From: a virus
Lineage: Duplodnaviria; Caudoviricetes
Virus record (IMG/VR): IMGVR_UViG_3300005841_000939
Reading direction: 5' to 3' (one strand)
Length of the DNA: 64,000 nt
In this document: positions 1 to 9,608 of the stretch, one piece after another
How positions within the stretch are numbered: the first letter of the stretch is position 1
How the letters are laid out: every line of letters begins with the position of its first letter
The notes under the pieces: generated by a model
What the model saw: only the letters and a program-made list of their open reading frames with translations
Told to the model about the DNA's origin: nothing
The model's database searches: none
Translations under genes and position numbers: made by a program

Positions 1-163
1 AATAATACTCTGTCAGCCCGTTAATACCAGATTCTTTGACGTAATGGTCATATTCTTTTTTATTCTTAGACATATTCGCAAAGTACAACGACTTAGCCAA
101 CTTAATCCTTGAATTTTCAAAGTCATTGAACTGAATTTTATTATATTTTTTCTTTTTATTCAT
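1..163 (-). CDS. Hypothetical protein, 3' end outside window (MNKKKKYNKIQF...)
   Basis: Manual translation from ATG at 163, open to the window edge; lies downstream of the array terminator. Confidence 0.4.
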   Translation of the reverse strand, partial: MNKKKKYNKIQFNDFENSRIKLAKSLYFANMSKNKKEYDHYVKESGINGLTEYY

Positions 164-218
164 ATTTAAAGAATATTATACGCCTTTCATATTAGGCCGC
201 AAAATGTTTATATAGGTG

Positions 219-250
219 AAAAAACCCATATACATTTCTGCATATGGGTT
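219..250 (-). terminator. Intrinsic terminator closing the tRNA array
   Basis: Minus strand AACCCATATGCA-GAAA-TGTATATGGGTT followed by TTTT, 10 nt after the last tRNA CCA. Confidence 0.85.
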
Positions 251-260
251 ATCCACTTTA

Positions 261-336
261 TGGTGCTGACAGAGGGAATTGAACCCCCAACCTATTGTTT
301 ACAAAACAATTGCTCTGCCAATTGAGCTATGTCAGC
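261..336 (-). tRNA. tRNA-Thr(UGU)
   Basis: Cloverleaf; anticodon arm ATTGT-TTTGTAA-ACAAT; encoded CCA. Confidence 0.95.
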
Positions 337-372
337 ATAAAAACATTATAAACGGTAGAATCAAAAAACAAG

Positions 373-448
373 TGGTCAGGGTAACGAGAATTGAACTCGT
401 GTTTCATCCGTGACAGGGATGCGTAATAAGCCACTATACCATACCCCG
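373..448 (-). tRNA. tRNA-Asp(GUC)
   Basis: CATCC-CTGTCAC-GGATG; T arm; CCA. Confidence 0.92.
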
Positions 449-453
449 AAAAT

Positions 454-528
454 TGGCCGCTTCCGTGGGATTCGGACCCACATGACAAGGTTCGTAGCCT
501 TGTATCCTTCCAGTTAGATGAAGAAGCG
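454..528 (-). tRNA. tRNA-Arg(ACG)
   Basis: CAAGG-CTACGAA-CCTTG; CCA. Confidence 0.92.
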
Positions 529-543
529 AAACATAAAACAAAT

Positions 544-618
544 TGGCGTCCCATAAAGGATTTGAACCTTTTCTCTCAGTTTAGAAGACTGATTTGCTTC
601 CAATTACAACAACGGGAC
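544..618 (-). tRNA. tRNA-Arg(UCU)
   Basis: TCAGT-CTTCTAA-ACTGA; CCA. Confidence 0.92.
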
Positions 619-627
619 AAGAAAAAA

Positions 628-1047
628 CATATGGTGTGCTATGCTGGGCCAAAGTCTATTGAGGTATATTCTTGAGAAGTCGGGCATACAACCTTTTGCT
701 TATCAATTGCAACGCCCTCAAACCCACCGTTCCGTAAGATACTTGATGGGCAATTCTCATGTCGTCTGTTATATCAACTTACACAAGCTTTATTGGGTCG
801 GAAATCATGCATTGCTGCAATCAAAAACCCCTTGCTCCCTGTAACTGCTTGCGCAATTTATGGGTTCTTTCGATGTAAGCCAATATCGTCAACTCTATCC
901 TAGGGTTATAAGTCTGGACTGTTGCTATGCACTCCCTGATTGCTATTCAGTTCGCTGTGCTGCCAGAAACTCTTGAACCGTTTGCGCGACAGTTCTTCCC
1001 TTCGACACTCCTTAGATGATGCCTTGTTAAAGGCCACATCCCATATG
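628..1047 (-). ncRNA. Large structured RNA A (420 nt) framed by a 23S rRNA L11-binding-domain-like motif
   Basis: Terminal stem CATATGG/CCATATG; 5' GGATGTGGCCTTTAACAAGGCATCATCTAAGGAGTG and 3' ATAGCACA resemble 23S H43/H44; several GCAA-capped hairpins inside. Confidence 0.7.
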
Positions 1048-1052
1048 CAAAT

Positions 1053-1126
1053 TGGTTCCCCGTCTGAGAATTGAACTCAGGTCTCCAGCGTCACAAGCCG
1101 ATATACTGCCATTGTACGAACGAGGG
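1053..1126 (-). tRNA. tRNA-His(GUG), non-canonical acceptor end
   Basis: CGGC-TTGTGAC-GCTG; CCA; A73 and C1.A72 mismatch, genomic -1 base is T. Confidence 0.88.
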
Positions 1127-1207
1127 AATAACAAAACCGATTTTTTCCATAGCTCGGTAAACACTATGTTCCTTAGACGAGAACACGTTCATAGAAATTT
1201 CAAATAT

Positions 1208-1282
1208 TGGTTCCCCATCCGAGAATCGAACTCGGGTCTCCGGTGCCACAAACCAGCGTACTAACCACTGTACGAATGAGAG
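1208..1282 (-). tRNA. tRNA-His(GUG), second copy, same non-canonical acceptor end
   Basis: CTGGT-TTGTGGC-ACCGG; CCA; A73 and C1.A72. Confidence 0.88.
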
Positions 1283-1283
1283 A

Positions 1284-1595
1284 ATGAGAAAGACATTTTA
1301 TAATATTGCAATGCTTCGTTTAAAAACATTACGTGATGGACATACTTGTGTATTTTGTGGCCTAACATCTAAGCTAGGTAACAAGTCATGCCGAAATCTC
1401 ATAGAGATTCATCATATTATTGAACGTCAAGATGGCGGATCTAACGAAAGTTCAAATTTAATTCCATGCTGTTCCAATCACCATTCGCTTATCCATTCAG
1501 GAAGCATCAACGTTGATCGTTGGTACAAATCCACAAAAGGATGGCTATTGCGATGGACAGATGAAACTGGTGTTGAACACTATTCACCAGAATAA
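1284..1595 (+). CDS. HNH endonuclease, antisense within the tRNA array (true start may be ATG 1311)
   Basis: CxxC...IEIHHI...GGSNESSNLIPCCSNHHSLIH HNH signature. Confidence 0.85.
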   Translation: MRKTFYNIAMLRLKTLRDGHTCVFCGLTSKLGNKSCRNLIEIHHIIERQDGGSNESSNLIPCCSNHHSLIHSGSINVDRWYKSTKGWLLRWTDETGVEHYSPE

Positions 1596-1599
1596 AAAA

Positions 1600-1945
1600 T
1601 TGTTTGAATGGTGTGTTATTACACCAAAGAACCGGTTTTCTTTACTCTTAATCAAACACGAATTATAAAAAGACACATTGAAAAAGTAATGTATTGTCTC
1701 TTTATAAAAGGAGAATAACTCCAAAGTTTCGTTCTTAAACATGTAGCTGACTCCGGTCAAAGAGTAGGATTATGAATCCTTGCGCGGTTTGTTCAGAAGA
1801 GGTTGCTAGCTAATCCCTTCGTCGTCATACTTTATTTACCTTTTTTATCAGGACCATATGACAATCATCGGGCAAGCACCTTGCTATTCAGCGAATTCAC
1901 TCTTTAAAAGATGGCTACTTCTAAGCCGACTTCCCATTCAAACAA
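1600..1945 (-). ncRNA. Large structured RNA B (346 nt) framed by a 23S rRNA L11-binding-domain-like motif
   Basis: Perfect 12-bp terminal stem TTGTTTGAATGG/CCATTCAAACAA; 5' GGAAGTCGGCTTAGAAGTAGCCATCTTTTAAAGAGTG and 3' TGTAATAACACA match the 23S 1051-1108 consensus, split by a ~290-nt insert. Confidence 0.8.
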
Positions 1946-1954
1946 AAAGAATTT

Positions 1955-2105
1955 CACGACAAAAGTGCCAAAGTAGACTCCTTGCGGATTAGCTGTGTCT
2001 ATCATTTCCACCATACTCCCAATTGGTGGGAGCACCGGGATTTAAACCACGGATGTACCTAAGTACGGCTACGGTTATATAATGTAAACTTTAACTGCAT
2101 TCGTG
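1955..2105 (-). ncRNA. Y RNA-like scaffold copy 1 with permuted type II tRNA-like domain
   Basis: CACGAATGC...TACAT...T arm, acceptor closed by ACCAATT loop, D arm...TTTTGTCGTG. Confidence 0.7.
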
Positions 2106-2110
2106 AAAAG

Positions 2111-2185
2111 TGGTGCGTCGTCTTGGAATCGAACCAAGTCCCGAGGATTAAAAGTCCCCTGCTCCACCATTTGAGCTTACAACGC
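2111..2185 (-). tRNA. tRNA-Lys(UUU)
   Basis: GGGGA-CTTTTAA-TCCTC; CCA. Confidence 0.95.
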
Positions 2186-2189
2186 GTGT

Positions 2190-2501
2190 TTATTTCTTTG
2201 GTAAATTGCCAGTTATGAAAAATTTAAGACGTTGAAAAAAGCCCATATGAACTATTTCTTCATATGACATCAACATACTTTCCATACATGAATCTTTTAA
2301 CTTATTACTTTCTTCAATCTTTTTATTTTCTTCAATCAGTCTTTTATTTTCGGATTGAAGTGAAACATAATGCTTTTGTTGATATTCGATCAAACCAGCA
2401 TGAAATGCAGTTCCGCCAACCAAAATAAATTCACGAAGTGGAATTGATTGAGGCATTGAGTCTTGCATCTGTTGCGCAGCTTTTTCTAAATCTTTAGTCA
2501 T
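2190..2501 (-). CDS. Hypothetical protein with coiled coil
   Basis: 103-aa ORF, ATG, overlaps the upstream stop (ATGA). Confidence 0.7.
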   Translation of the reverse strand: MTKDLEKAAQQMQDSMPQSIPLREFILVGGTAFHAGLIEYQQKHYVSLQSENKRLIEENKKIEESNKLKDSCMESMLMSYEEIVHMGFFQRLKFFITGNLPKK

Positions 2502-2650
2502 TTTATTTCTTTGTGATTGGTTTTAACGGACTTTGATCCATACCCTGGACCAAACTTTTCTATCTGCTTCTTATACCACAATGCATGTGATCTAAGCCTT
2601 AAGAAATCGCCAGGTCCACTTCCTTTTGGTATCGGAATTTTTCTGAACAT
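2498..2650 (-). CDS. Small basic hypothetical protein (MFRKIPIPKG..., 50 aa)
   Basis: AAGGAG RBS before ATG 2650; the longer track ORF runs into tRNA-Lys. Confidence 0.6.
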   Translation of the reverse strand: MFRKIPIPKGSGPGDFLRLRSHALWYKKQIEKFGPGYGSKSVKTNHKEIK

Positions 2651-2669
2651 GGCATCTCCTTTCTTAATT

Positions 2670-2744
2670 TGGTGGGTCGTCACGGAATCGAACCGTGTTC
2701 TCAGGATTAAGAGTCCTATGCATCGCCATTTATGCTTACAACCC
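2670..2744 (-). tRNA. tRNA-Lys(CUU)
   Basis: TAGGA-CTCTTAA-TCCTG; CCA. Confidence 0.95.
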
Positions 2745-2748
2745 AAAT

Positions 2749-3036
2749 TTATATTAAAGATAGTGTTGATTCATCAAATAGGAATTCTTTTTTGACTTGT
2801 TCAATTGGAACTTTTATGACTTGTTCGTGAAATTGCCTAGTTTCTTTATAAGACGATTTTGAATGCTTATATACATGACGAATTAGCACCGTCTTTTCAG
2901 TGACCTTCGCAATTTTACCAAACATGAATGATCTATATTCCAATTCTACAAATAAAACCCAATCACCTGCAGCTAATTCATTGCCAAGAAAATCTTTGTT
3001 CATGGCGAAAGTATATGCAACCAATTTCGTTGTCAA
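2749..3036 (-). CDS. Hypothetical protein (SH3/KOW-like small phage protein)
   Basis: ORF with DFLGNEL..GDWV.F...GKIAKVTEKTV pattern; start uncertain. Confidence 0.6.
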   Translation of the reverse strand: MTTKLVAYTFAMNKDFLGNELAAGDWVLFVELEYRSFMFGKIAKVTEKTVLIRHVYKHSKSSYKETRQFHEQVIKVPIEQVKKEFLFDESTLSLI

Positions 3037-3086
3037 TTCTAAAAGGATACCTGGTTAAGCAGCAGGGTGAGGTTACGATTCTGTCG

Positions 3087-3245
3087 TCACAGACCGATTA
3101 AATATTCTTCACTCATCACAAACGCCAAACAGTCATCATCCATTCCATTATCAATTATGACTGGACCTGTTGCTTCTGCACCATACATTTTGATGGCATT
3201 TTCCATGGAATCTTCACACAGTTTTTTGAATTCTGGATATTCCAT
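3087..3245 (-). CDS. Small acidic hypothetical protein (52 aa)
   Basis: Manual translation MEYPEFKKLCEDS...; below the track length cutoff. Confidence 0.45.
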   Translation of the reverse strand: MEYPEFKKLCEDSMENAIKMYGAEATGPVIIDNGMDDDCLAFVMSEEYLIGL

Positions 3246-3250
3246 GATGA

Positions 3251-3403
3251 TCACTTTATAATTCTAAGAGGATAAAATTTTGTTTCATCCTTCTTTTTAT
3301 TCTTTGGATTCTTACTACGTTTTTGTTCAGATTCATGCAAAAGTTTTGCATAAATTTTCTGAAACTCTTCTAACGTGATTCCTATATCGTCATCTTCTTT
3401 CAT
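3251..3403 (-). CDS. Small hypothetical protein (50 aa)
   Basis: Manual translation MKEDDDIGITLEEF... Confidence 0.4.
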   Translation of the reverse strand: MKEDDDIGITLEEFQKIYAKLLHESEQKRSKNPKNKKKDETKFYPLRIIK

Positions 3404-3420
3404 GATGAGTCTTTCTAAAA

Positions 3421-3496
3421 TGGTGGAGACGGCAGGACTCGAACCTGTAACCCTCTACGTGCAAGGCAGATGCTCTACCAATTGAGCTACGTCCCC
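3421..3496 (-). tRNA. tRNA-Ala(UGC)
   Basis: TCTGC-CTTGCAC-GTAGA; G3.U70; CCA. Confidence 0.96.
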
Positions 3497-3595
3497 ATTT
3501 TGTTTATTGATATTTAGCTTTCGCTATTTTCTTCTTCCATGATGGCCAGGAATTAAACTTTTTCTTAGCCTCTTTTAAAATTTGTGCAGATGATT

Positions 3596-4039
3596 TCATA
3601 TTTTATTGGCGAATGTATAAAACATTCCAGTCTTTGTGTCAATGAATTTATATTCCTCAACTTTATATTCAAAAACTAATGAAAATATTCCGTCTGTATC
3701 ATTTAAATCATGATCTAACTTAGTTCCATGATAGAGACCTGCCAGATAAATTTTAGTAAATTCAAGTTTCAATATTACATCACCATTTTTTGCTATTTGT
3801 GATGTAACAATTTTTTCTGGTTGTTTAAACATCAATTCAAGTGTTTTTGGATTTTTATCATCAACTAACATTTTTATTTTTAATGTATCTTTATTAGTGA
3901 AGTCAACCGTTCTCACAAGTGTTGTTAGTTCGTTCTTTGGAACTAGTTCTACGCCATTAGCATCAAAGGCTTCTACTAAAAATAGATATGATCTTAATGG
4001 ATCATTAAAAAGAAATTCTGGTTTTGGAATATTATTCAT
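3596..4039 (-). CDS. Hypothetical protein, weakly tail-tube (gp19)-like
   Basis: Start moved to ATG 4039 because the track ORF overlaps tRNA-Gln; DPLRSYLFLVE and LDH...FSLVFEY resemble gp19-family ends. Confidence 0.55.
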   Translation of the reverse strand: MNNIPKPEFLFNDPLRSYLFLVEAFDANGVELVPKNELTTLVRTVDFTNKDTLKIKMLVDDKNPKTLELMFKQPEKIVTSQIAKNGDVILKLEFTKIYLAGLYHGTKLDHDLNDTDGIFSLVFEYKVEEYKFIDTKTGMFYTFANKI

Positions 4040-4080
4040 ACAAGTAATTATACAAAATATATTACAATATGCGAGAAAAA

Positions 4081-4156
4081 TGGTTGGGGAGGAAGGATTC
4101 GAACCTTCAACTTCTGGATTCAAAGTCCAGCGTTCTACCGATTGAACTACTCCCCA
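4081..4156 (-). tRNA. tRNA-Gln(UUG)
   Basis: CTGGA-CTTTGAA-TCCAG; CCA. Confidence 0.95.
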
Positions 4157-4165
4157 ATGAAAATT

Positions 4166-4247
4166 TGGTGTGCCTGAGAGGACTTGAACCTCCACCCTTT
4201 CGGACTAGTTTCTAAAACTAGCGCGGCTGCCATTACGCCACAAGCAC
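4166..4247 (-). tRNA. tRNA-Leu(UAG)
   Basis: CTAGT-TTTAGAA-ACTAG; variable arm; A73. Confidence 0.93.
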
Positions 4248-4262
4248 ATGATGAAATTGAAA

Positions 4263-4349
4263 TGGTGTGTCCAAAAGGAGTCGAACCTTCACCCCTGTTA
4301 CGGGATTAGCACCTCAAGCTAACGCGGCTGCCAATTACGCCATAGACAC
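4263..4349 (-). tRNA. tRNA-Leu(GAG)
   Basis: TTAGC-TTGAGGT-GCTAA; long variable arm. Confidence 0.92.
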
Positions 4350-4356
4350 ATAAAAA

Positions 4357-4417
4357 TCAAGACTAATATTTGAGAAGTTTTGTTGTTTCATAATGTAAAC
4401 TTCTGCGGCATTCTTGA
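4357..4417 (-). ncRNA. Y RNA-like scaffold copy 2 (minimal, no tRNA domain)
   Basis: TCAAGAATGC..AGAAGTT-TACAT...AACTTCT...TATTAGTCTTGA. Confidence 0.65.
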
Positions 4418-4427
4418 AAAAATAAAA

Positions 4428-4522
4428 TGGCGCCCCAGGATGGATTTGAACCACCAACCTCTTCTTGATCCCCCAAGGGATGGCCTTGATCAAGAATCAC
4501 TCTACATTTGAGCTACCGGGGC
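4428..4522 (-). tRNA. tRNA-like gene with a greatly extended anticodon arm (identity undetermined)
   Basis: Normal acceptor, D and T arms and GCCA end; anticodon arm TTCTTGATC-17 nt-GATCAAGAA. Confidence 0.7.
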
Positions 4523-4532
4523 ATATAAAAAA

Positions 4533-4607
4533 TGGCACCCAAGATAGGACTCGAACCTATAACATCCTGATTAACAGTCAGGCTCTCTACCATTGAGATA
4601 CTCGGGT
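4533..4607 (-). tRNA. tRNA-Asn(GUU)
   Basis: CCTGA-CTGTTAA-TCAGG; G73; CCA. Confidence 0.94.
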
Positions 4608-4617
4608 ACAAAAAAAA

Positions 4618-4708
4618 TGGCTGGTAGTGAGGGACTCGAACCCCCATGATGTTTTTCACATCGGCTCGTTAACAGCGGGCTGCCTTACCAAATTCGGCAC
4701 AACTACCA
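4618..4708 (-). tRNA. Type II (long variable arm) tRNA with Asn anticodon GUU
   Basis: GCCCG-CTGTTAA-CGAGC; variable arm GATGT-GAAAA-ACATC; G73; CCA. Confidence 0.8.
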
Positions 4709-4720
4709 ATGAAAATAAAA

Positions 4721-4806
4721 TGGAGTCTGTAGCAGGATTTGAACCTGCGTGTGGTTTCCCAAACGGTTTTGCAAACCGTCGCTTTCAGCCGCTCAGCCAT
4801 ACAGAC
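4721..4806 (-). tRNA. tRNA-Cys(GCA) with extended variable arm
   Basis: ACGGT-TTGCAAA-ACCGT; U73; CCA. Confidence 0.9.
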
Positions 4807-4812
4807 ATATAA

Positions 4813-4891
4813 TCGCAACAAAATTTAAAAAGTTTTGGTTTTTCCAGAGCAAGCTCGGGTATATTAGATGTAAACTTTTCAGCATTTGCGA
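4813..4891 (-). ncRNA. Y RNA-like scaffold copy 3 (no tRNA domain)
   Basis: TCGCAAATGC..AAAAGTT-TACAT...AACTTTT...TTTTGTTGCGA. Confidence 0.65.
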
Positions 4892-4903
4892 AATAAAAAG
4901 AAT

Positions 4904-5036
4904 AAAGCGACAAAAAGTATGAAGTGGTTTTTCGTGTGTTAGCCGTTACACCACCACCCGTTATGGTCGGGCAGCCAGGAATCGAACCTAGATCACGTTC
5001 TCCGAATGAATGTACACCTCAAAAGGCATTCGCTTT
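4904..5036 (-). ncRNA. Y RNA-like scaffold copy 4 with permuted tRNA-like domain
   Basis: AAAGCGAATGC...TACAT...CTAGG-TTCGATT-CCTGG, CTGCCCG-ACCATAA-CGGGTGG, D arm...TTTTGTCGCTTT. Confidence 0.72.
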
Positions 5037-5039
5037 AAA

Positions 5040-5116
5040 TGGTGGTCCCTCAGGGAATCGAACCCTAACCTCAGGTTTTTCAAACCTACGTGCATACCTA
5101 ATTACACCAAAGGACC
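5040..5116 (-). tRNA. tRNA-Phe(GAA)
   Basis: TAGGT-TTGAAAA-ACCTG; CCA. Confidence 0.92.
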
Positions 5117-5133
5117 ATAATATCTTAAAAAAT

Positions 5134-5223
5134 TGGCGGATAGAGAGGGATTTGAACCCCCGGAACGTTTTCACGCTCATCGGTTTAGTAAACCGGCGCA
5201 TTCGGCCACTCTGCCATCTATCC
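5134..5223 (-). tRNA. tRNA-Ser(ACU), rare A34 anticodon
   Basis: CCGGT-TTACTAA-ACCGA; long variable arm; G73; acceptor and T arm identical to Ser(UGA) at 8811. Confidence 0.9.
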
Positions 5224-5232
5224 GTATGAAAC

Positions 5233-5306
5233 TGGTCGGTAATGATGGAGTCGAACCATCGCATTGGCCTTATGAGAGCCACGTTCTGCCGTTAAACTAA
5301 ATACCG
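5233..5306 (-). tRNA. tRNA with CAU anticodon (Met or Ile2)
   Basis: TGGCT-CTCATAA-GGCCA; A73; CCA. Confidence 0.88.
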
Positions 5307-5310
5307 ATAC

Positions 5311-5386
5311 TGGCACGCTGGGCAGGACTTGAACCTGCAACACCTGGTTTTGGAAACCAGTGCTCTGCCGATTGAGCTACCAGCGT
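5311..5386 (-). tRNA. tRNA-Trp(CCA)
   Basis: CTGGT-TTCCAAA-ACCAG; G73; CCA. Confidence 0.95.
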
Positions 5387-5393
5387 ATGAAAC

Positions 5394-5603
5394 TTAAAAA
5401 TCTTTCTCTTCAAGCAAATTTGTGCAACGACCTTCTGCAACTGCTCTATTTATGTCATCAAATTCTTTTTTGATTTCATCAAGCAATGCTTTCTTTTCTT
5501 CTTCTGATATATCAGAAGAATTTAACCTTTCTTCGGTTTTCTCATCCAAATGAATGCAACTTGAAATCATTCCTTCTGATAACCATTCCTGTGGAACTAT
5601 CAT
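5394..5603 (-). CDS. Small acidic hypothetical protein
   Basis: 69-aa ORF overlapping the HD gene stop. Confidence 0.55.
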   Translation of the reverse strand: MIVPQEWLSEGMISSCIHLDEKTEERLNSSDISEEEKKALLDEIKKEFDDINRAVAEGRCTNLLEEKDF

Positions 5604-6205
5604 TTGTCTTCTTTCTCTAAAAGGTTGTTAAAAATGATTTTGCAAATGGCCTTGCCACGACGGTCAATATGCTTCCACTTGATCTTAAAAGAATCCGAAT
5701 CAATACCACCAAACATATTGGCATTTGAATGGATTTCAGCAAGACCTGCAATTAGAAGTGTTATTGCTTCTTTGCGTTTGCAAAATTCTTCAATTTGTTC
5801 TGCTTTGAGACGATGAATATCCATATCCAACCTAATGAGATTGGCAATTTGTTCATCACCTCCATGATCTAACCAAATTTGTGCAGAAATTTCCGCATGA
5901 TTTGGAAAATGAATGCGACCTTCGCTATCAGTTTCCTGACAGAATGGTTTGCCGCAATCATGAAAAAGGGCATACTCAAGAATTGTTTCGGTGTCTAACA
6001 GATTCCCTAAAATCTGTGACTTGTATAATTGAAACCATTCAGGGAGTCGCCAATTTGGCAACACCTATGTTTCACCTTTTATAAACTGAATCAACTCTTG
6101 AAGATGATTCTTGACTGATTCTCCGTGTTGGAGAATCGTTTGATGTTGATTTTGATTACAACCCTTCATCTTTTCGATGAGGATCTACTGAAAGTCCTGC
6201 TTCAT
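5600..6205 (-). CDS. HD-domain phosphohydrolase with two in-frame TAG codons (6185-6187 and 6065-6067)
   Basis: AAGGA RBS before ATG 6205; same frame as track ORF 5600..6064; LQHG (first His), FHDCGKP and later DMDIH/EIHSN motifs. Confidence 0.7.
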
Positions 6206-6213
6206 GATGTTCC

Positions 6214-6384
6214 TTAAATGGTTGATGCGAGAGCGAGCGATGTTGCTATGCGTGAAAGTTCGTCATTTCTTTTACTATCAATTTGACCATTGTTCCATCC
6301 AATTTCTCGAATGTGAAATGCCAACGCCAAAGAATTTTCAAATTCTTCAACTTCAATTAATTTTTCTCCAACTCTAATCATCAT
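6214..6384 (-). CDS. Small hypothetical protein (56 aa)
   Basis: Manual translation MMIRVGEKLIEVEEF...; ATGA overlap with the HNH stop. Confidence 0.5.
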   Translation of the reverse strand: MMIRVGEKLIEVEEFENSLALAFHIREIGWNNGQIDSKRNDELSRIATSLALASTI

Positions 6385-6689
6385 TTCAATCTTTCTGATT
6401 TTTGAATTGCGAGTTGTTTTGACGATTTAATTTTATTATACAAGTCATCAGGATGGAAATTTGGTTCCCATTCTTTCCCTTGTGTAATATGAAATTTTTC
6501 TGCCATCATGTGATGGGTTGGGCAAAGAGAAATACCATTCTCTTTGACATAGCCACCGTTTGGCATTTCATTTCGATCAGTTATGTGATGCGCATCAAGA
6601 TTTTCTTTAATGTCACAAAACAAACATTTGCCACCGTCTCGCTTGAAGACTGCGTTGCGAAATGCTGAACGAATTTCCTTCTTGTTCAT
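6381..6689 (-). CDS. HNH endonuclease
   Basis: CLFC...LDAHHI...NGISLCPTHH. Confidence 0.85.
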   Translation of the reverse strand: MNKKEIRSAFRNAVFKRDGGKCLFCDIKENLDAHHITDRNEMPNGGYVKENGISLCPTHHMMAEKFHITQGKEWEPNFHPDDLYNKIKSSKQLAIQKSERLK

Positions 6690-6769
6690 GGCTTACGACA
6701 TAAGTTTAAGCCTTGTTTTTATATGTCAACTGAAAAAACACCTGGGTATTCGCTGTCTTTCAAACTCTG

Positions 6770-6887
6770 GTTAGTTGATGCATTCAACATCACCAATGCG
6801 CCAAGTGTGTATTGAAAATGCCGCAGTCAGGATATGCGCCAGCTTTGAACTTCTAGTTAGTTGATGCATCAACATCACTAATGCGCC
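6770..6887 (-). repeat. Direct repeat of a ~33-nt hairpin with ATGCA loop
   Basis: gttagttgatgcat(t)caacatcac(c/t)aatgcgcc at 6770-6802 and 6856-6887; related hairpin at 7090-7110. Confidence 0.8.
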
Positions 6888-6901
6888 TGAGATTGGCTTT
6901 T

Positions 6902-6977
6902 TGGTGGACAATGAGGGATTTGAACCCCCGACCTCTTGAATGTAAATCAAGCACTCTAGCCGCTGAGTTAATCGTCC
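6902..6977 (-). tRNA. tRNA-Val(UAC)
   Basis: CTTGA-TTTACAT-TCAAG; CCA. Confidence 0.94.
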
Positions 6978-7145
6978 AAAAATTGAAATTATAAAGGCAG
7001 CTTTCAATCGCGACCATATCGTATAATTTCTTCCTGTTTTTTATCCATGATGGATCATCATGCTATGCTTTTGACTTGTTGCAAACAAGCAATGTTATGC
7101 ATTAACATTGTTAGCATCTAACCGTCGCTAGATGCCCAAAAAAGA

Positions 7146-7212
7146 AATACGACTAAAAGCGAATAAGAGGGGTTATCTTAAATGGATGTACTCCTATTCT
7201 AGCATTCGTATT
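7146..7212 (-). ncRNA. Y RNA-like scaffold copy 5 (no tRNA domain)
   Basis: AATACGAATGC..GAATAGGAG-TACAT...CTCTTATTC-GCTTTTAGTCGTATT. Confidence 0.68.
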
Positions 7213-7214
7213 AT

Positions 7215-7300
7215 TGGTGCCCATAGCCGGACTTGAACCAGCACCCCTGTTACGGGAGAGGATTTTGAATCCACCGCGGCTGCCATTACGCCATACGGGC
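7215..7300 (-). tRNA. tRNA-Leu(CAA)
   Basis: GTGGA-TTCAAAA-TCCTC; long variable arm. Confidence 0.92.
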
Positions 7301-7343
7301 AAAAATTGATTGTCTAAAATGGTTGTGAATACTTTCGTTTATA

Positions 7344-7448
7344 GAAATGGTCTGCCGTAGCACGTTGGCCATTTCTTTGACGGGAGCATTCATATCTAAA
7401 AGGTGCCAATAATATCCCCAAAGCTGCCGTAGCACGTTCTATGAGGAA
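7344..7448 (-). repeat. Two hairpins with an identical 15-nt apical sequence AACGTGCTACGGCAG
   Basis: ctgccgtagcacgtt at 7352-7366 and 7424-7438, each between different complementary flanks. Confidence 0.8.
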
Positions 7449-7459
7449 GATGGCGAAAT

Positions 7460-7532
7460 TGCTGCGACACTTGGATTTAAACCAAGACTTTCCGATTTCC
7501 CCTCGGTGCTCTAATTATTAAGCTATATCACA
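7460..7532 (-). pseudogene. Degenerate tRNA-like element
   Basis: Acceptor, D and T arms fold; anticodon loop GGGGAAA lacks U33; 3' end GCAA. Confidence 0.6.
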
Positions 7533-7538
7533 ATAAGA

Positions 7539-7615
7539 TGGTCAGTATGAGAGGATTTGAACCTCTGACTTCTGGCTTCCAAAACCAGCACTCTTCCAGG
7601 CTGAGCTACACACTG
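7539..7615 (-). tRNA. tRNA-Pro(UGG)
   Basis: CTGGT-TTTGGAA-GCCAG; CCA. Confidence 0.94.
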
Positions 7616-7623
7616 ATAAAAAG

Positions 7624-7725
7624 TTTCACAACAAAATAAAAAAGAAGTGCTCCCCAATAGAGCATCTGAGGTTTCCCTAAGATTGGAATCGAACCAATAA
7701 TGTATTCTTTTTAGCATTTGTGAAA
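7624..7725 (-). ncRNA. Y RNA-like scaffold copy 6 with minimal permuted tRNA-like domain
   Basis: TTTCACAAATGC..TACAT-T-ATTGG-TTCGATT-CCAAT-CTTAGG-GAAA-CCTCAG-AT-GCTC-TATTGGG-GAGC...TTTTGTTGTGAAA. Confidence 0.72.
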
Positions 7726-7731
7726 ATGAAA

Positions 7732-7818
7732 TGGTGGGTGAAATAGGACTCGAACCTATGAAGTCATTAAAGACGGGACGTTTACAGCGTCCAGCAATTG
7801 CCGCTATGCGATTCACCC
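7732..7818 (-). tRNA. tRNA-Tyr(GUA)
   Basis: GGACG-CTGTAAA-CGTCC; long variable arm; A73. Confidence 0.94.
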
Positions 7819-7823
7819 AAAAA

Positions 7824-7964
7824 TATCACGACTAAATTGCGAAAGAAAATGGCTTGCGCCGAATCGGCTGTTCTACCGCTGAACTACATCACACCGAAAT
7901 GTGATGGTGGGATTTGAACCCACGACAGGCTGATGGAATGTAATCCTTCATTGCATTCGTGATA
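7824..7964 (-). ncRNA. Y RNA-like scaffold copy 7 with permuted tRNA-like domain
   Basis: TCACGAATGC..TACAT...GTGGG-TTCAAAT-CCCAC, CATCACA-TTTCGG-TGTGATG, GTTC-AGCGGTA-GAAC...TTTAGTCGTGA. Confidence 0.75.
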
Positions 7965-7975
7965 AAAACTGAAAA

Positions 7976-8052
7976 TGGTCGGACATGCTGGATTTGAACC
8001 AGCGGTCTCTTGCTCCCAAAGCAAGCGCGATACCAGGCTACGCTAATGTCCG
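7976..8052 (-). tRNA. tRNA-Pro(UGG), second copy
   Basis: CTTGC-TTTGGGA-GCAAG; CCA. Confidence 0.92.
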
Positions 8053-8054
8053 AA

Positions 8055-8131
8055 AAGCCGATCCGTCAAGATTTTAACTTGAATCTCCCAGCGTATAGTG
8101 CCAGGCATTCTTTACGTTGAACTACGAATCG
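8055..8131 (-). pseudogene. Degenerate tRNA-like element (no CCA, no U33)
   Basis: Cloverleaf folds; loop ACTATAC; T loop TTAAAAT; 3' end GCTT. Confidence 0.6.
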
Positions 8132-8146
8132 AAAAGTAAACTAAAA

Positions 8147-8223
8147 AGGCCCGACTGTCAAGATTTGAACTTGAATTTTCCAGCCATGACGGCCGGACGT
8201 TCTTTGCATTGAACTACAATCAG
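8147..8223 (-). pseudogene. Degenerate tRNA-like element, paralog of 8055-8131
   Basis: Cloverleaf folds; loop CGTCATG; 3' end GCCT. Confidence 0.6.
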
Positions 8224-8228
8224 AAAAA

Positions 8229-8361
8229 GAAACGACTAAAAGCGAAAAGATGTATTACGCGCTCTACCGGTGAGCTAAACGAGCAAATTGGCGCCCGCTC
8301 CAGGAATCGAACCTGGTCCTCGTCCTTAACATGGATGTAATCCTTTCAAAGCATTCGTTTC
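8229..8361 (-). ncRNA. Y RNA-like scaffold copy 8 with permuted tRNA-like domain
   Basis: GAAACGAATGC..TACAT...CCAGG-TTCGATT-CCTGG, AGCGGGC-GCCAATTT-GCTCGTT, GCTC-ACCGGTA-GAGC...TTTTAGTCGTTTC. Confidence 0.75.
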
Positions 8362-8370
8362 AAAGAAAAG

Positions 8371-8501
8371 GTCTGACAAATATTAGAGAAATTGTTTTTT
8401 AATGCTACCGTTACACCATACACACCTTTCGATGTGCAATAGGATTCGAACCTATACCCTTTGATTATCGGTCAATGTAAATCTCTCAAAGGCATTCAGA
8501 C
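8371..8501 (-). ncRNA. Y RNA-like scaffold copy 9 with permuted tRNA-like domain
   Basis: GTCTGAATGC..TACAT...ATAGG-TTCGAAT-CCTAT, TGCACAT-CGAAAG-GTGTGTA, D arm...TTTGTCAGAC. Confidence 0.72.
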
Positions 8502-8504
8502 TTG

Positions 8505-8580
8505 TGGTTGGCATACCAGGAATCGAACCTGGATCTTAACTTTATCAGAGTTATGTGATGAACCATTCTACTATACGCCA
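8505..8580 (-). tRNA. tRNA-Ile(GAU)
   Basis: TAACT-CTGATAA-AGTTA; A73; CCA. Confidence 0.93.
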
Positions 8581-8810
8581 ATATGGTGATGTCGATTTTT
8601 AGGCCGACACCACTAATCCAACGTTTAAACTCGGTTTTACCCAAATCTCCTAACGTTGGCAAAAGGAATGCTACTAGCCTTTCGACTAATAGCATTTTTA
8701 ATGCTATTTTTTGATTCTACAGTTATAAAGTTTTCAAGTTTGAATCTGGAACCATTATTCTGTCGTTCTTGGGTTTAGCAAGAACTATCCTTTTTGGTTT
8801 GTCGATTCAT

Positions 8811-8900
8811 TGGCGGATAGAGAGGGATTTGAACCCCCGGAGCCCTTTCAGGCCCTCTAGTTTTCAAGACTAGCGCAATAAGCCGCTCTGCCATCTATCC
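8811..8900 (-). tRNA. tRNA-Ser(UGA), first tRNA of the array
   Basis: CTAGT-CTTGAAA-ACTAG; long variable arm; G73. Confidence 0.95.
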
Positions 8901-8930
8901 AGCACATTCTAAATTTTTCAAAGATACTAC

Positions 8931-8966
8931 AAAACGAAAAACCCTGAGACTTTTTGGTCCCAGGGT
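8931..8966 (-). terminator. Attenuator-type intrinsic terminator just upstream of the first tRNA
   Basis: ACCCTGGGAC-CAAAAA-GTCTCAGGGT followed by TTTTCGTTTT. Confidence 0.85.
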
Positions 8967-8991
8967 CTTGAGTCAGTCAGTTATGACCTTC

Positions 8992-9108
8992 TCAGTTGGG
9001 ACCACTTCCGTTTCTATCCAACGGATTTGAGCGGCAAGGATATGTATTAAATGCTACTTGAGCATTCCAGACCTTGCTTTTCATAATGAGTTGATGGGAG
9101 CGTTTCAT
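8992..9108 (-). CDS. Putative 38-aa attenuator leader peptide MKRSHQLIMKSKVWNAQVAFNTYPCRSNPLDRNGSGPN
   Basis: Manual translation ATG 9108 to TGA 8992; 19 of 20 amino acids; its last codons carry TGGTCCCA, complementary to the terminator 5' arm; no clear SD. Confidence 0.65.
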   Translation of the reverse strand: MKRSHQLIMKSKVWNAQVAFNTYPCRSNPLDRNGSGPN

Positions 9109-9121
9109 GGCGTTATGTTGA

Positions 9122-9129
9122 TATTTATA
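9122..9129 (-). promoter_or_regulatory. T4-type late promoter TATAAATA driving leader and tRNA array (a sigma70-like TTGCAT...TATAAA overlaps it)
   Basis: Exact T4 late consensus 13 nt upstream of the leader ATG. Confidence 0.6.
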
Positions 9130-9164
9130 TATAACTTATTCTAGCATGCAAGAGAAATTTTTTC

Positions 9165-9608
9165 TCAGAAATCTAGAAGCTTGTAAACCTTGTCTTTTGC
9201 GTGTGTTAAGTCGTTGATGATTACATCAAACTTGGGATGCTTGTTTCTACGCTCACGTTCTAAGAAGTCAACGTACCACTCAAGTTGTCCTATGATTTTA
9301 TTTGCGTAGGATCTAACATTGTGTGGATTCACATTTTGACCTTGAACTTGAATATACTTATTCATTTTCTCTACGAGGTCCAAAATAGCCTTGTAATCTT
9401 TTATTCTAAAATATGAAATAGGATCACCATTTTCATCACGTTCAAATGGTGCTATTTTTTTATCAAACTGATGAATACGGTCATCAAAACCACTTAACAG
9501 TTGCCATACACGAAAAAATCTTTCTGATAGAGGTAAGCTTCTTTGTGCTTCTACATGAGCGTTTTCTAAAAACTTACTCCATTGTCTTTTCATGAATGCA
9601 GGGTGCAT
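9165..9608 (-). CDS. Hypothetical helical protein, paralog of the adjacent gene
   Basis: 147-aa ORF; aligns by eye with 9617..10063. Confidence 0.8.
   Translation of the reverse strand: MHPAFMKRQWSKFLENAHVEAQRSLPLSERFFRVWQLLSGFDDRIHQFDKKIAPFERDENGDPISYFRIKDYKAILDLVEKMNKYIQVQGQNVNPHNVRSYANKIIGQLEWYVDFLERERRNKHPKFDVIINDLTHAKDKVYKLLDF

Follow-up and report, generated by a model that had tools for sequence, protein, structure and literature searches.

Copy 1, a 420-nt non-coding element at positions 628-1047 (minus strand) of the analysed window, is rather likely to represent a stable non-coding RNA in which the scaffold of a ribosomal RNA site was kept and the specificity was altered or narrowed, and which is not dead but stands beside a canonical relative, copy 2 (1600-1945, minus strand). 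The window, i.e. the whole stretch of 64,000 nucleotides, belongs to a 262.5-kb IMG/VR virus record from rhizosphere samples, which is 97% complete according to CheckV. Both copies are located in a tRNA array (261-8900) with at least 27 tRNA genes, which lie on the minus strand throughout. Copy 1 is flanked by two of them: upstream, the CCA end of tRNA-His(GUG) (1053-1126, minus strand) is 5 nt away from the element, and downstream a 9-nt spacer precedes the 5' end of tRNA-Arg(UCU) (544-618, minus strand). No promoter-like or terminator-like site of its own was detected adjoining copy 1. The sole ORF of at least 50 codons inside the element is an antisense ORF (641-844), for which no Pfam or PHROG family was matched. 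In Rfam 15, no family was found at copy 1; only tRNAs and sub-threshold YrlA hits were obtained in the region 1-9500 (gathering scores; E up to 10). A megablast search of the array against GenBank phages matched tRNA fragments alone. The identical sequence of copy 1 was present in three further rhizosphere samples, and the four samples (DNA runs) contained the same phage with zero variants.

Some further features of the array were observed. Sub-threshold matches to YrlA (Y RNA-like) were located between tRNA genes on the minus strand (7837-7950, 8226-8361 and 4901-5036), with scores of 37.9, 32.6 and 22.5 bits, respectively, in comparison to the Rfam gathering score of 69. An HNH endonuclease ORF (1284-1595, plus strand; Pfam HNH 25.8 bits, PHROG 589) lies opposite to the array strand between tRNA-His and copy 2 and is probably a homing endonuclease gene which landed in the array. 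Two segments on the minus strand (4431-4522 and 8058-8131) were recognized as tRNA in a permissive Rfam scan (42.5 and 36.7 bits); neither was called by ARAGORN, and both were absent when the 64 kb were scanned at the gathering threshold. A tRNA-like 3' part (GGUUUAAAUCCCGGUGCUCCCACCA) occurs in the 160-nt stretch (1952-2110, minus strand) which separates tRNA-Lys from copy 2.

The phage GAC-mimic RNA family

A degenerate 18-nt pattern drawn from both copies detected 94 viral loci, and 76 unique family members were contained among the collected loci. About 80 of the 94 loci showed the H43 motif GGRAWGUnGGCUUAGAAGCA upstream and CUUUGGCGUAAYAGCACAC downstream, together with a closing helix. The family, which is defined by alignment A4 and by R1, a covariance model derived from 23 further members, reproduces helices 42-44 of 23S rRNA, i.e. 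the uL11-binding GTPase-associated centre (GAC), with covariation of the rRNA type, and thus imitates the site at which translation factors dock on the ribosome. In the core of 23 short members, 89.7% was paired (shuffled 69.2%) and the covariation score was 0.549 (shuffled 0.172; 0/500 shuffles). As in rRNA, the pair 1058:1080 occurred in the 23 members as U:A (14) or A:U (8), 1082:1086 as U:A (15) or C:G (7), with A:U in L171, L173 and L174, and 1092:1099 as C:G (19) or U:A (4). The equivalent of the closing helix showed covariation at 9/9 pairs in 23 family members. The insert helix of the family, which likewise covaries, begins with a pair between the final G of GAGUG and the first letter of CUUUGG.

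In its helices, the family core agrees with the 23S GAC (H42-H44, E. coli 1051-1108, the 58-nt uL11/thiostrepton domain), and it shares the junction nucleotides U1060, A1077, U1078, UAA, G1087 and A1088; the pairs 1058:1080, 1082:1086 and 1092:1099 covary alike, and the loops with A1067 and A1095 are retained in canonical members, including copy 2. Unlike the 23S GAC, the family RNA is freestanding in the phage, possesses its own closing helix and carries an insert of 60-370 nt on the 5' side of H44, which is joined via CUUUGG. Copy 1 departs further from the rRNA, as both apical loops are replaced, so that its H43 loop and H44 are unable to engage in the tertiary contacts known from rRNA.

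The initial annotation had proposed a search of jumbo-phage tRNA arrays, and the family does occur in named jumbo phages, for example in GAP32, Serratia BF and XacN1. Cultured jumbo-phage carriers are Cronobacter phage GAP32, Serratia phage BF and several Erwinia pEa_SNUABM phages, and furthermore Xanthomonas phages XacN1 and XbC2, Aeromonas phage 4_4572 and Paenibacillus phage Pd_22F. The element is unannotated in the two records which were inspected (GAP32 and XacN1). The family was also detected in 26 bacterial assemblies, mostly MAGs. Rfam 15 contained no matching family, also when eight canonical loci were scanned, and a published description of the phage GAC-mimic RNA family was not found in the literature. 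A tRNA was located within 500 nt of 35 out of 60 unique elements, in many cases at a distance of -1 to 15 nt, and 333 of the 334 tRNAs in family loci share the strand of the element. Fifteen of the 60 loci are without any tRNA, and the members of GAP32 and XacN1 lie away from tRNAs amid protein genes.

The length of the members ranges from 124 to about 420 nt in the approximately 80 full loci, with a short exception of 81 nt (L080). A bare copy of the 58-nt rRNA domain, the smallest form which the family takes, is the insert-free element (GUGGAAUGUAGGCUUCAAAGUAGCCAUCAUCUAAGGAGUGCGUAAUAGCUCACCAC) at L009:4863-4920 (minus strand of the locus; IMGVR_UViG_3300045988_133080). In Xanthomonas phage XacN1 (L123, AP018399.1, 150244-150606), the element is situated between protein genes, directly downstream of an annotated 2'-5' RNA ligase gene. 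Three unrelated contigs (L008, L018 and L077) share a small ORF immediately downstream of the element, which starts with the zinc-ribbon-like sequence MEKC(M/L)RCGH..I.GGNFMLS. Its product may be a partner protein; the ORF is absent beside both elements of this window.

Anatomy of copy 1 and the two-site sub-family

The RNA strand of copy 1 reads CAUAUGG, then GAUGU GGCCUUUAACAAGGC AUCAU CUAAG GAGUG, the 351-nt insert, CUUUGG C CCAGCAUA GCACA and finally CCAUAUG. All strings which had been quoted for this element beforehand were located as stated on the minus strand, and the sequence agrees with the earlier description of a retained closing stem and a retained H43 stem and junction with a diverged H43 loop. 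The closing helix comprises 7 bp between its 5' strand CAUAUGG (1041-1047, minus strand), the counterpart of the top of 23S H42 (E. coli 1051-1055), and its 3' strand CCAUAUG (628-634, minus strand). It is the equivalent of 1051-1055 paired with 1104-1108 and is paired in alignment A3. The 5' segment of the element is GGAUGUGGCCUUUAACAAGGCAUCAUCUAAGGAGUG (1041-1006), and the 3' segment AUAGCACACC directly precedes the 3' strand of the helix.

In the H43-like hairpin (1016-1040, minus strand) the lower stem GAUGU/AUCAU is retained and the apex is remodelled. A 5-bp helix GCCUU/AAGGC (1034-1030 with 1025-1021), capped by UAAC (1029-1026), replaces the 9-nt H43 loop UUAGAAGCA, which contains A1067 and which copy 2 keeps. 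The junction CUAAG plus GAGUG (1006-1015, minus strand) provides C:G at the position of 1082:1086, followed by G1087 and A1088. Altogether, A1057, W1058:W1080, G1059:C1079, U1060, A1077, U1078, Y1082:R1086, UAA and GAGUG are all present in copy 1. On the other side of the insert, the junction motif CUUUGG (649-654, minus strand), which the initial annotation had noticed near the 3' end, is near-invariant across the whole family, and its first letter, C654, pairs with G1006 at the end of GAGUG. The H44-like hairpin (635-648, minus strand) has retained its closing pairs G:C and C:G and is followed by GCACA(C). Its loop is the 8-nt CCAGCAUA (647-640) instead of the hexaloop GUAAYA; the closing pairs and GCACAC are unchanged.

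The insert (655-1005, minus strand) is of the sub-family A type. Its length is 351 nt when measured from the end of GAGUG (1006) to the start of CUUUGG (654), and about 363 nt by the limits used in the initial annotation. Comparative structure covers just a part of it. The helix at its base consists of G1006:C654, U1005:A655 and C1004:G656 and of GG (999-998) with CC (664-663); the helix covaries, its first three pairs in A3 and A4. The first insert hairpin, GAACUGU-CGCGCAA-ACGGUUC (975-995, minus strand), has counterparts of different sequence at the same place in L014, L048, L032 and L013; L014 and L048 are also the best BLAST relatives of copy 1, across the core and this hairpin. Another hairpin, GGGC...GCCC (682-717, minus strand), follows GUUUGA and precedes GAC, and the same arrangement occurs in L125 and L157, where the stems UCGG/CCGA and CAGG/CCUG, respectively, appear by eye to be its counterparts. 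Both GCAA-capped hairpins reported previously (UUGC-GCAA-GCAG and UGCA-GCAA-UGCA) occur in the insert.

A feature which the initial annotation had overlooked is a hairpin at 722-751 (minus strand) resembling the sarcin-ricin loop (SRL; H95, E. coli 2653-2667). Its 7-bp stem GCCCAUC/GGUGGGU, with G:U as the outermost pair, surrounds A-AGUA-U-C[UUAC]G-GAAC. The stem and the bulged-G frame AGUA/GAAC of the SRL are kept at the same place (AGUA-U-C[UUAC]G-GAAC compared to AGUA-C[GAGA]G-GAAC); unlike the rRNA with C[GAGA]G, copy 1 contains C[UUAC]G plus an extra U. In rRNA, ricin-type and sarcin-type enzymes act on A2660 and G2661. Since UUAC stands for GAGA, the equivalents of these two bases are absent from copy 1.

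Copy 1 belongs to a two-site sub-family (sub-family A), in which the GAC frame is combined with an SRL-like hairpin. The inserts of this sub-family start with an nCGAGnGGAAG-like sequence and end with CCnUnrGAGn before CUUUGG, and copy 1 conforms to this (UCGAAGGGAAG at the start and CCUCAAUAGA at the end). Short forms are present in GAP32 and Serratia BF; long forms are L032, L013, L172, L129, L035, L134, L125 and L157, and in these a hairpin copying the SRL lies about 100 nt ahead of the 3' end. The hairpin of L032 is AGUACGAGAGGAAC, which agrees with Salmonella 23S rRNA in an unbroken run of 12 bases (AGUACGAGAGGA); L032 and L172 are letter-perfect to this rRNA over 12-13 nt (AGUACGAGAGGA), and L013 and L129 are near. 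In sub-family A, a covarying stem bears AGUACGAGAGGA(A/C)C. The SRL-like hairpin of copy 1 was aligned to all eight long forms, and its stem covaries at 6/7 pairs in the nine sequences. It is located 116 nt from the 3' end of the element (about 105 nt by the measure that gives 102-103 nt for L013, L032, L035 and L129). In place of the UUAC tetraloop of copy 1, the other members contain GAGA, GGGA, GUGA, AGAA or CAGC. For copy 1 and eight members, 90.5% of the cells were paired (shuffled 75.6%) and the covariation was 0.456 (shuffled 0.160; 0/500 shuffles). Beyond the matches to GAC and SRL, no other rRNA-like segments of Salmonella 23S rRNA were found in sub-family A.

Exchange of loops in copy 1 and its relation to copy 2

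The changes in copy 1 are distributed unevenly. Only 1 of 40 frame positions is changed in comparison to 8 of 15 loop positions (Fisher p = 4e-5), and the contrast between frame and loops increases when the SRL-like hairpin is added (Fisher p = 4e-7). The lone substitution among the 40 conserved frame positions is C1075 to G; furthermore, the variable base 1061 is absent. In the H43 loop 5 of 9 positions differ, and in the H44 loop at least 3 of 6 positions differ and two extra bases are present. The earlier view of a general divergence of copy 1 had thus to be given up in favour of a change confined mainly to three apical loops, the ones which ordinarily touch the factors. Two of the new loops, UAAC at the H43 apex and UUAC in the SRL-like hairpin, are UNAC tetraloops on perfect stems; such tetraloops reportedly adopt a GNRA-like fold. 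The concentration of change in the loops speaks more for a structured RNA whose specificity was altered than for a decaying copy, as far as can be judged from the pattern of substitutions.

The 5' half of copy 1 was recognized by R1 with 25.2 bits (E ~2e-6). This score and the covariation of the sub-family bear out the previous claim of a selected structural RNA instead of a chance match to rRNA. With BLAST, no significant match of copy 1 to Salmonella 23S rRNA was obtained, and LSU rRNA was not matched in Rfam (E up to 10). The MFE z-score of copy 1 was -0.66 and therefore no better than shuffles. The MFE was likewise unremarkable in most of 11 elements tested, including five canonical long members of sub-family A, and because most of these elements score alike, the value is uninformative for copy 1.

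Loop variants occur also in unrelated phages, i.e. in L125, L157, L080 and the first copy of L008. The H43 and H44 loops seem to be either canonical together or replaced together, which is an impression gained by eye, as the automated variant table is too noisy for counting. The 409.5-kb contig L008 (IMGVR_UViG_3300028048_000038) contains two members in one tRNA region on the minus strand (1415-1620 and 2270-2580), a loop variant (H43 loop GUAGAAA, H44 CC-UUGAAA-GG) and a canonical copy 850 nt apart, and thereby mirrors the pair of this window. The 81-nt member of L080 (525-605, plus strand; IMGVR_UViG_3300028805_000058) has an insert of only about 10 nt and is followed by tRNA genes; its H43 apex AGCUCUGGUCGAGAGGCGCC and its H44 loop GGGCAUAUAGCC are both replacements. 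An orthologue of copy 1 was not found, neither in viral contigs with the H44 variant nor in metagenome contigs with the H43 variant. In the whole 262-kb genome, R1 detected copies 1 and 2 alone and no third member.

Copy 2 is a canonical family member (GGCUUAGAAGUAGCCAUCUUUUAAAGAGUG ... CUUUGGUGUAAUAACACACC), which reads ...GGGAAGUCGGCUUAGAAGUAGCCAUCUUUUAAAGAGUG, insert, CUUUGGUGUAAUAACACACC... and was recognized by R1 with 53.9 and 32.2 bits. Across H43 it is identical to Salmonella 23S rRNA at 25 of 27 positions, and its MFE z-score is -4.1. The two elements had been regarded as paralogues with one architecture and a shared insert fold. One frame is indeed common to both; the elements, however, belong to different sub-families of a very large phage family, their inserts are without significant similarity, and they are not a local paralogous pair. 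The shared sequence near the 5' end of the inserts, which had been pointed out before, exists as the 11-mer CUGAAUAGCAA. This is the only similarity between the inserts (BLAST E 0.41), and the local structures differ, as the 11-mer forms a hairpin loop in copy 1 and part of a stem in copy 2. BLAST between the copies yielded nothing significant, and a pairwise MAFFT alignment of them was meaningless and was discarded. On sequence grounds, copies 1 and 2 are members of different sub-families and no recent paralogues.

Alternative explanations and putative function

That copy 1 is a retired, decaying two-site duplicate, which is functionless and survives inside a transcribed tRNA array, is unlikely. 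Such a fate could explain why copy 1 lacks each of the three loops on which the imitation rests, why no orthologues were found in viral and metagenome contigs, why copy 1 alone shows no significant similarity to rRNA and why its MFE z-score is only -0.66. However, this weak z-score is usual in the sub-family, also among canonical members, and decay does not account for the uneven change (1/40 frame compared to 8/15 loop positions, p = 4e-5). In addition, pairing is perfect in the remodelled H43 apex as well as in the SRL-like stem, two of the new loops are of one type (UNAC), all helices common to the sub-family are still paired in copy 1, and comparable loop variants recur in unrelated phages. 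It is very unlikely that the frame serves as a spacer or folding platform acting in cis on the maturation of adjacent tRNAs, with an rRNA likeness that has no role in trans. The tight fit between tRNAs on the same strand at many loci would suit such a scaffold, but members are also found away from tRNAs (GAP32, XacN1 and the 15 of 60 loci without tRNA), and a spacer needs no near-letter-perfect rRNA loops, yet most members retain these.

Assembly into multimeric cages, as envisaged by the initial annotation, is highly improbable for copy 1. Like GOLLD and ROOL, it would be a large, ornate RNA in a phage tRNA array, where these two often occur (PMC12286853); nevertheless, there were zero Rfam matches, including GOLLD and ROOL, at E up to 10, and lengths of 81 to about 420 nt around a constant small core are more readily explained by a small functional core whose insert varies than by a fixed cage subunit. 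It is barely conceivable that copy 1 was captured as a fragment from a host 23S rRNA gene, or that it arose as an assembly chimera. The match of copy 2 to 23S rRNA over H43 (25/27) might suggest it, but the rRNA-like part is only about 60 nt long, is split by the insert and is closed by a new helix, and other rRNA segments were not found. The same architecture with covariation exists in about 80 independent phage contigs, and the identical sequence was obtained from four separate samples; this candidate was ruled out by the family-wide architecture.

If copy 1 is the stable RNA with a kept scaffold which we favour, it would be transcribed together with the tRNA array and excised by tRNA processing, with RNase P acting at tRNA-Arg and 3' trimming at tRNA-His, and the 7-bp closing helix would seal the excised RNA. 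The RNAs of the family may serve as decoys or sponges away from the ribosome and titrate a host protein that reads the GAC site. Candidate partners would be uL11, translational GTPases or stringent factors, and defence toxins directed against H44 or the SRL. The isolated 58-nt rRNA domain is able to bind uL11 and thiostrepton. Moreover, a bacterial toxin, Tre23, ADP-ribosylates H44 at 1095-1098 (PMC8661411). Because of this binding and this precedent, an off-ribosome, titrating mimic would be the most economical reading of the family. A search of the phage's own genome yielded no uL11, GTP_EFTU or RelA_SpoT domain; therefore, any partner would be a host protein.

Copy 1 itself would exhibit an altered or narrowed binding specificity, alongside copy 2. 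The designation as an 'L11-domain' is doubtful as a statement on its function, since the nucleotides of the H43 loop which build the compact uL11-binding fold are gone from copy 1. In rRNA, the H43 bases 1071 and 1072 form base triples with H44, as seen in GAC crystal structures, and the lack of these bases in copy 1 likewise makes a binding of uL11 doubtful. As A1067, A1095, A2660, G2661 and the 1071/1072 triples, at which the candidate partners touch rRNA, are all missing, copy 1 should not share the job of copy 2. The strict retention of the frame argues that it still has a scaffold-dependent role. A more speculative and rather improbable extension is that the matched pair is the trace of an arms race, in which the loops of copy 1 were swapped with the shape kept (UNAC for GNRA) and the sequence changed, and that the pairing in L008 is convergent. 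The canonical RNA would then soak up a host factor or toxin reading the rRNA loops, and the variant would either escape a host counter-measure destroying the decoy or target a protein that reads the scaffold (uL11 or uL10, uL6).

Imitation of an rRNA protein site outside the ribosome is likewise found in the leaders of r-protein operons, e.g. the L10 leader (RF00557). Those are cis-acting 5' UTRs of bacteria, whereas copy 1 is located between tRNA genes with no r-protein gene nearby and without an Rfam match. YrlA and other bacterial Y RNAs are also non-coding, occur among phage tRNA genes and mimic one component of the translation machinery (tRNA), but differ from the GAC mimics in their fold and in their partner (Ro60). 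GOLLD (RF01998) and ROOL (RF03087) are large structured RNAs too, often phage-borne and tRNA-adjacent; in contrast to the GAC mimics they assemble into homo-oligomeric cages without imitating any rRNA site (PMC12286853), and copy 1 matches them neither in sequence nor in structure.

If the decoy reading is true, host defences would attack the ribosomal GTPase centre during infection. A free phage RNA that rebuilds a factor-binding site would be a new tool of host take-over or counter-defence and would join the tRNA arrays, Y RNAs and tmRNA-like genes of phages. Copies 1 and 2 could be used directly as constructs when uL11, EF-G, RelA and toxins against H44 or the sarcin-ricin loop are assayed for binding and competition. 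Copy 1 in particular represents a natural experiment, in which the scaffold is fixed and three loops are exchanged while a canonical copy lies in the same array, and which separates the roles of the frame from those of the loops.
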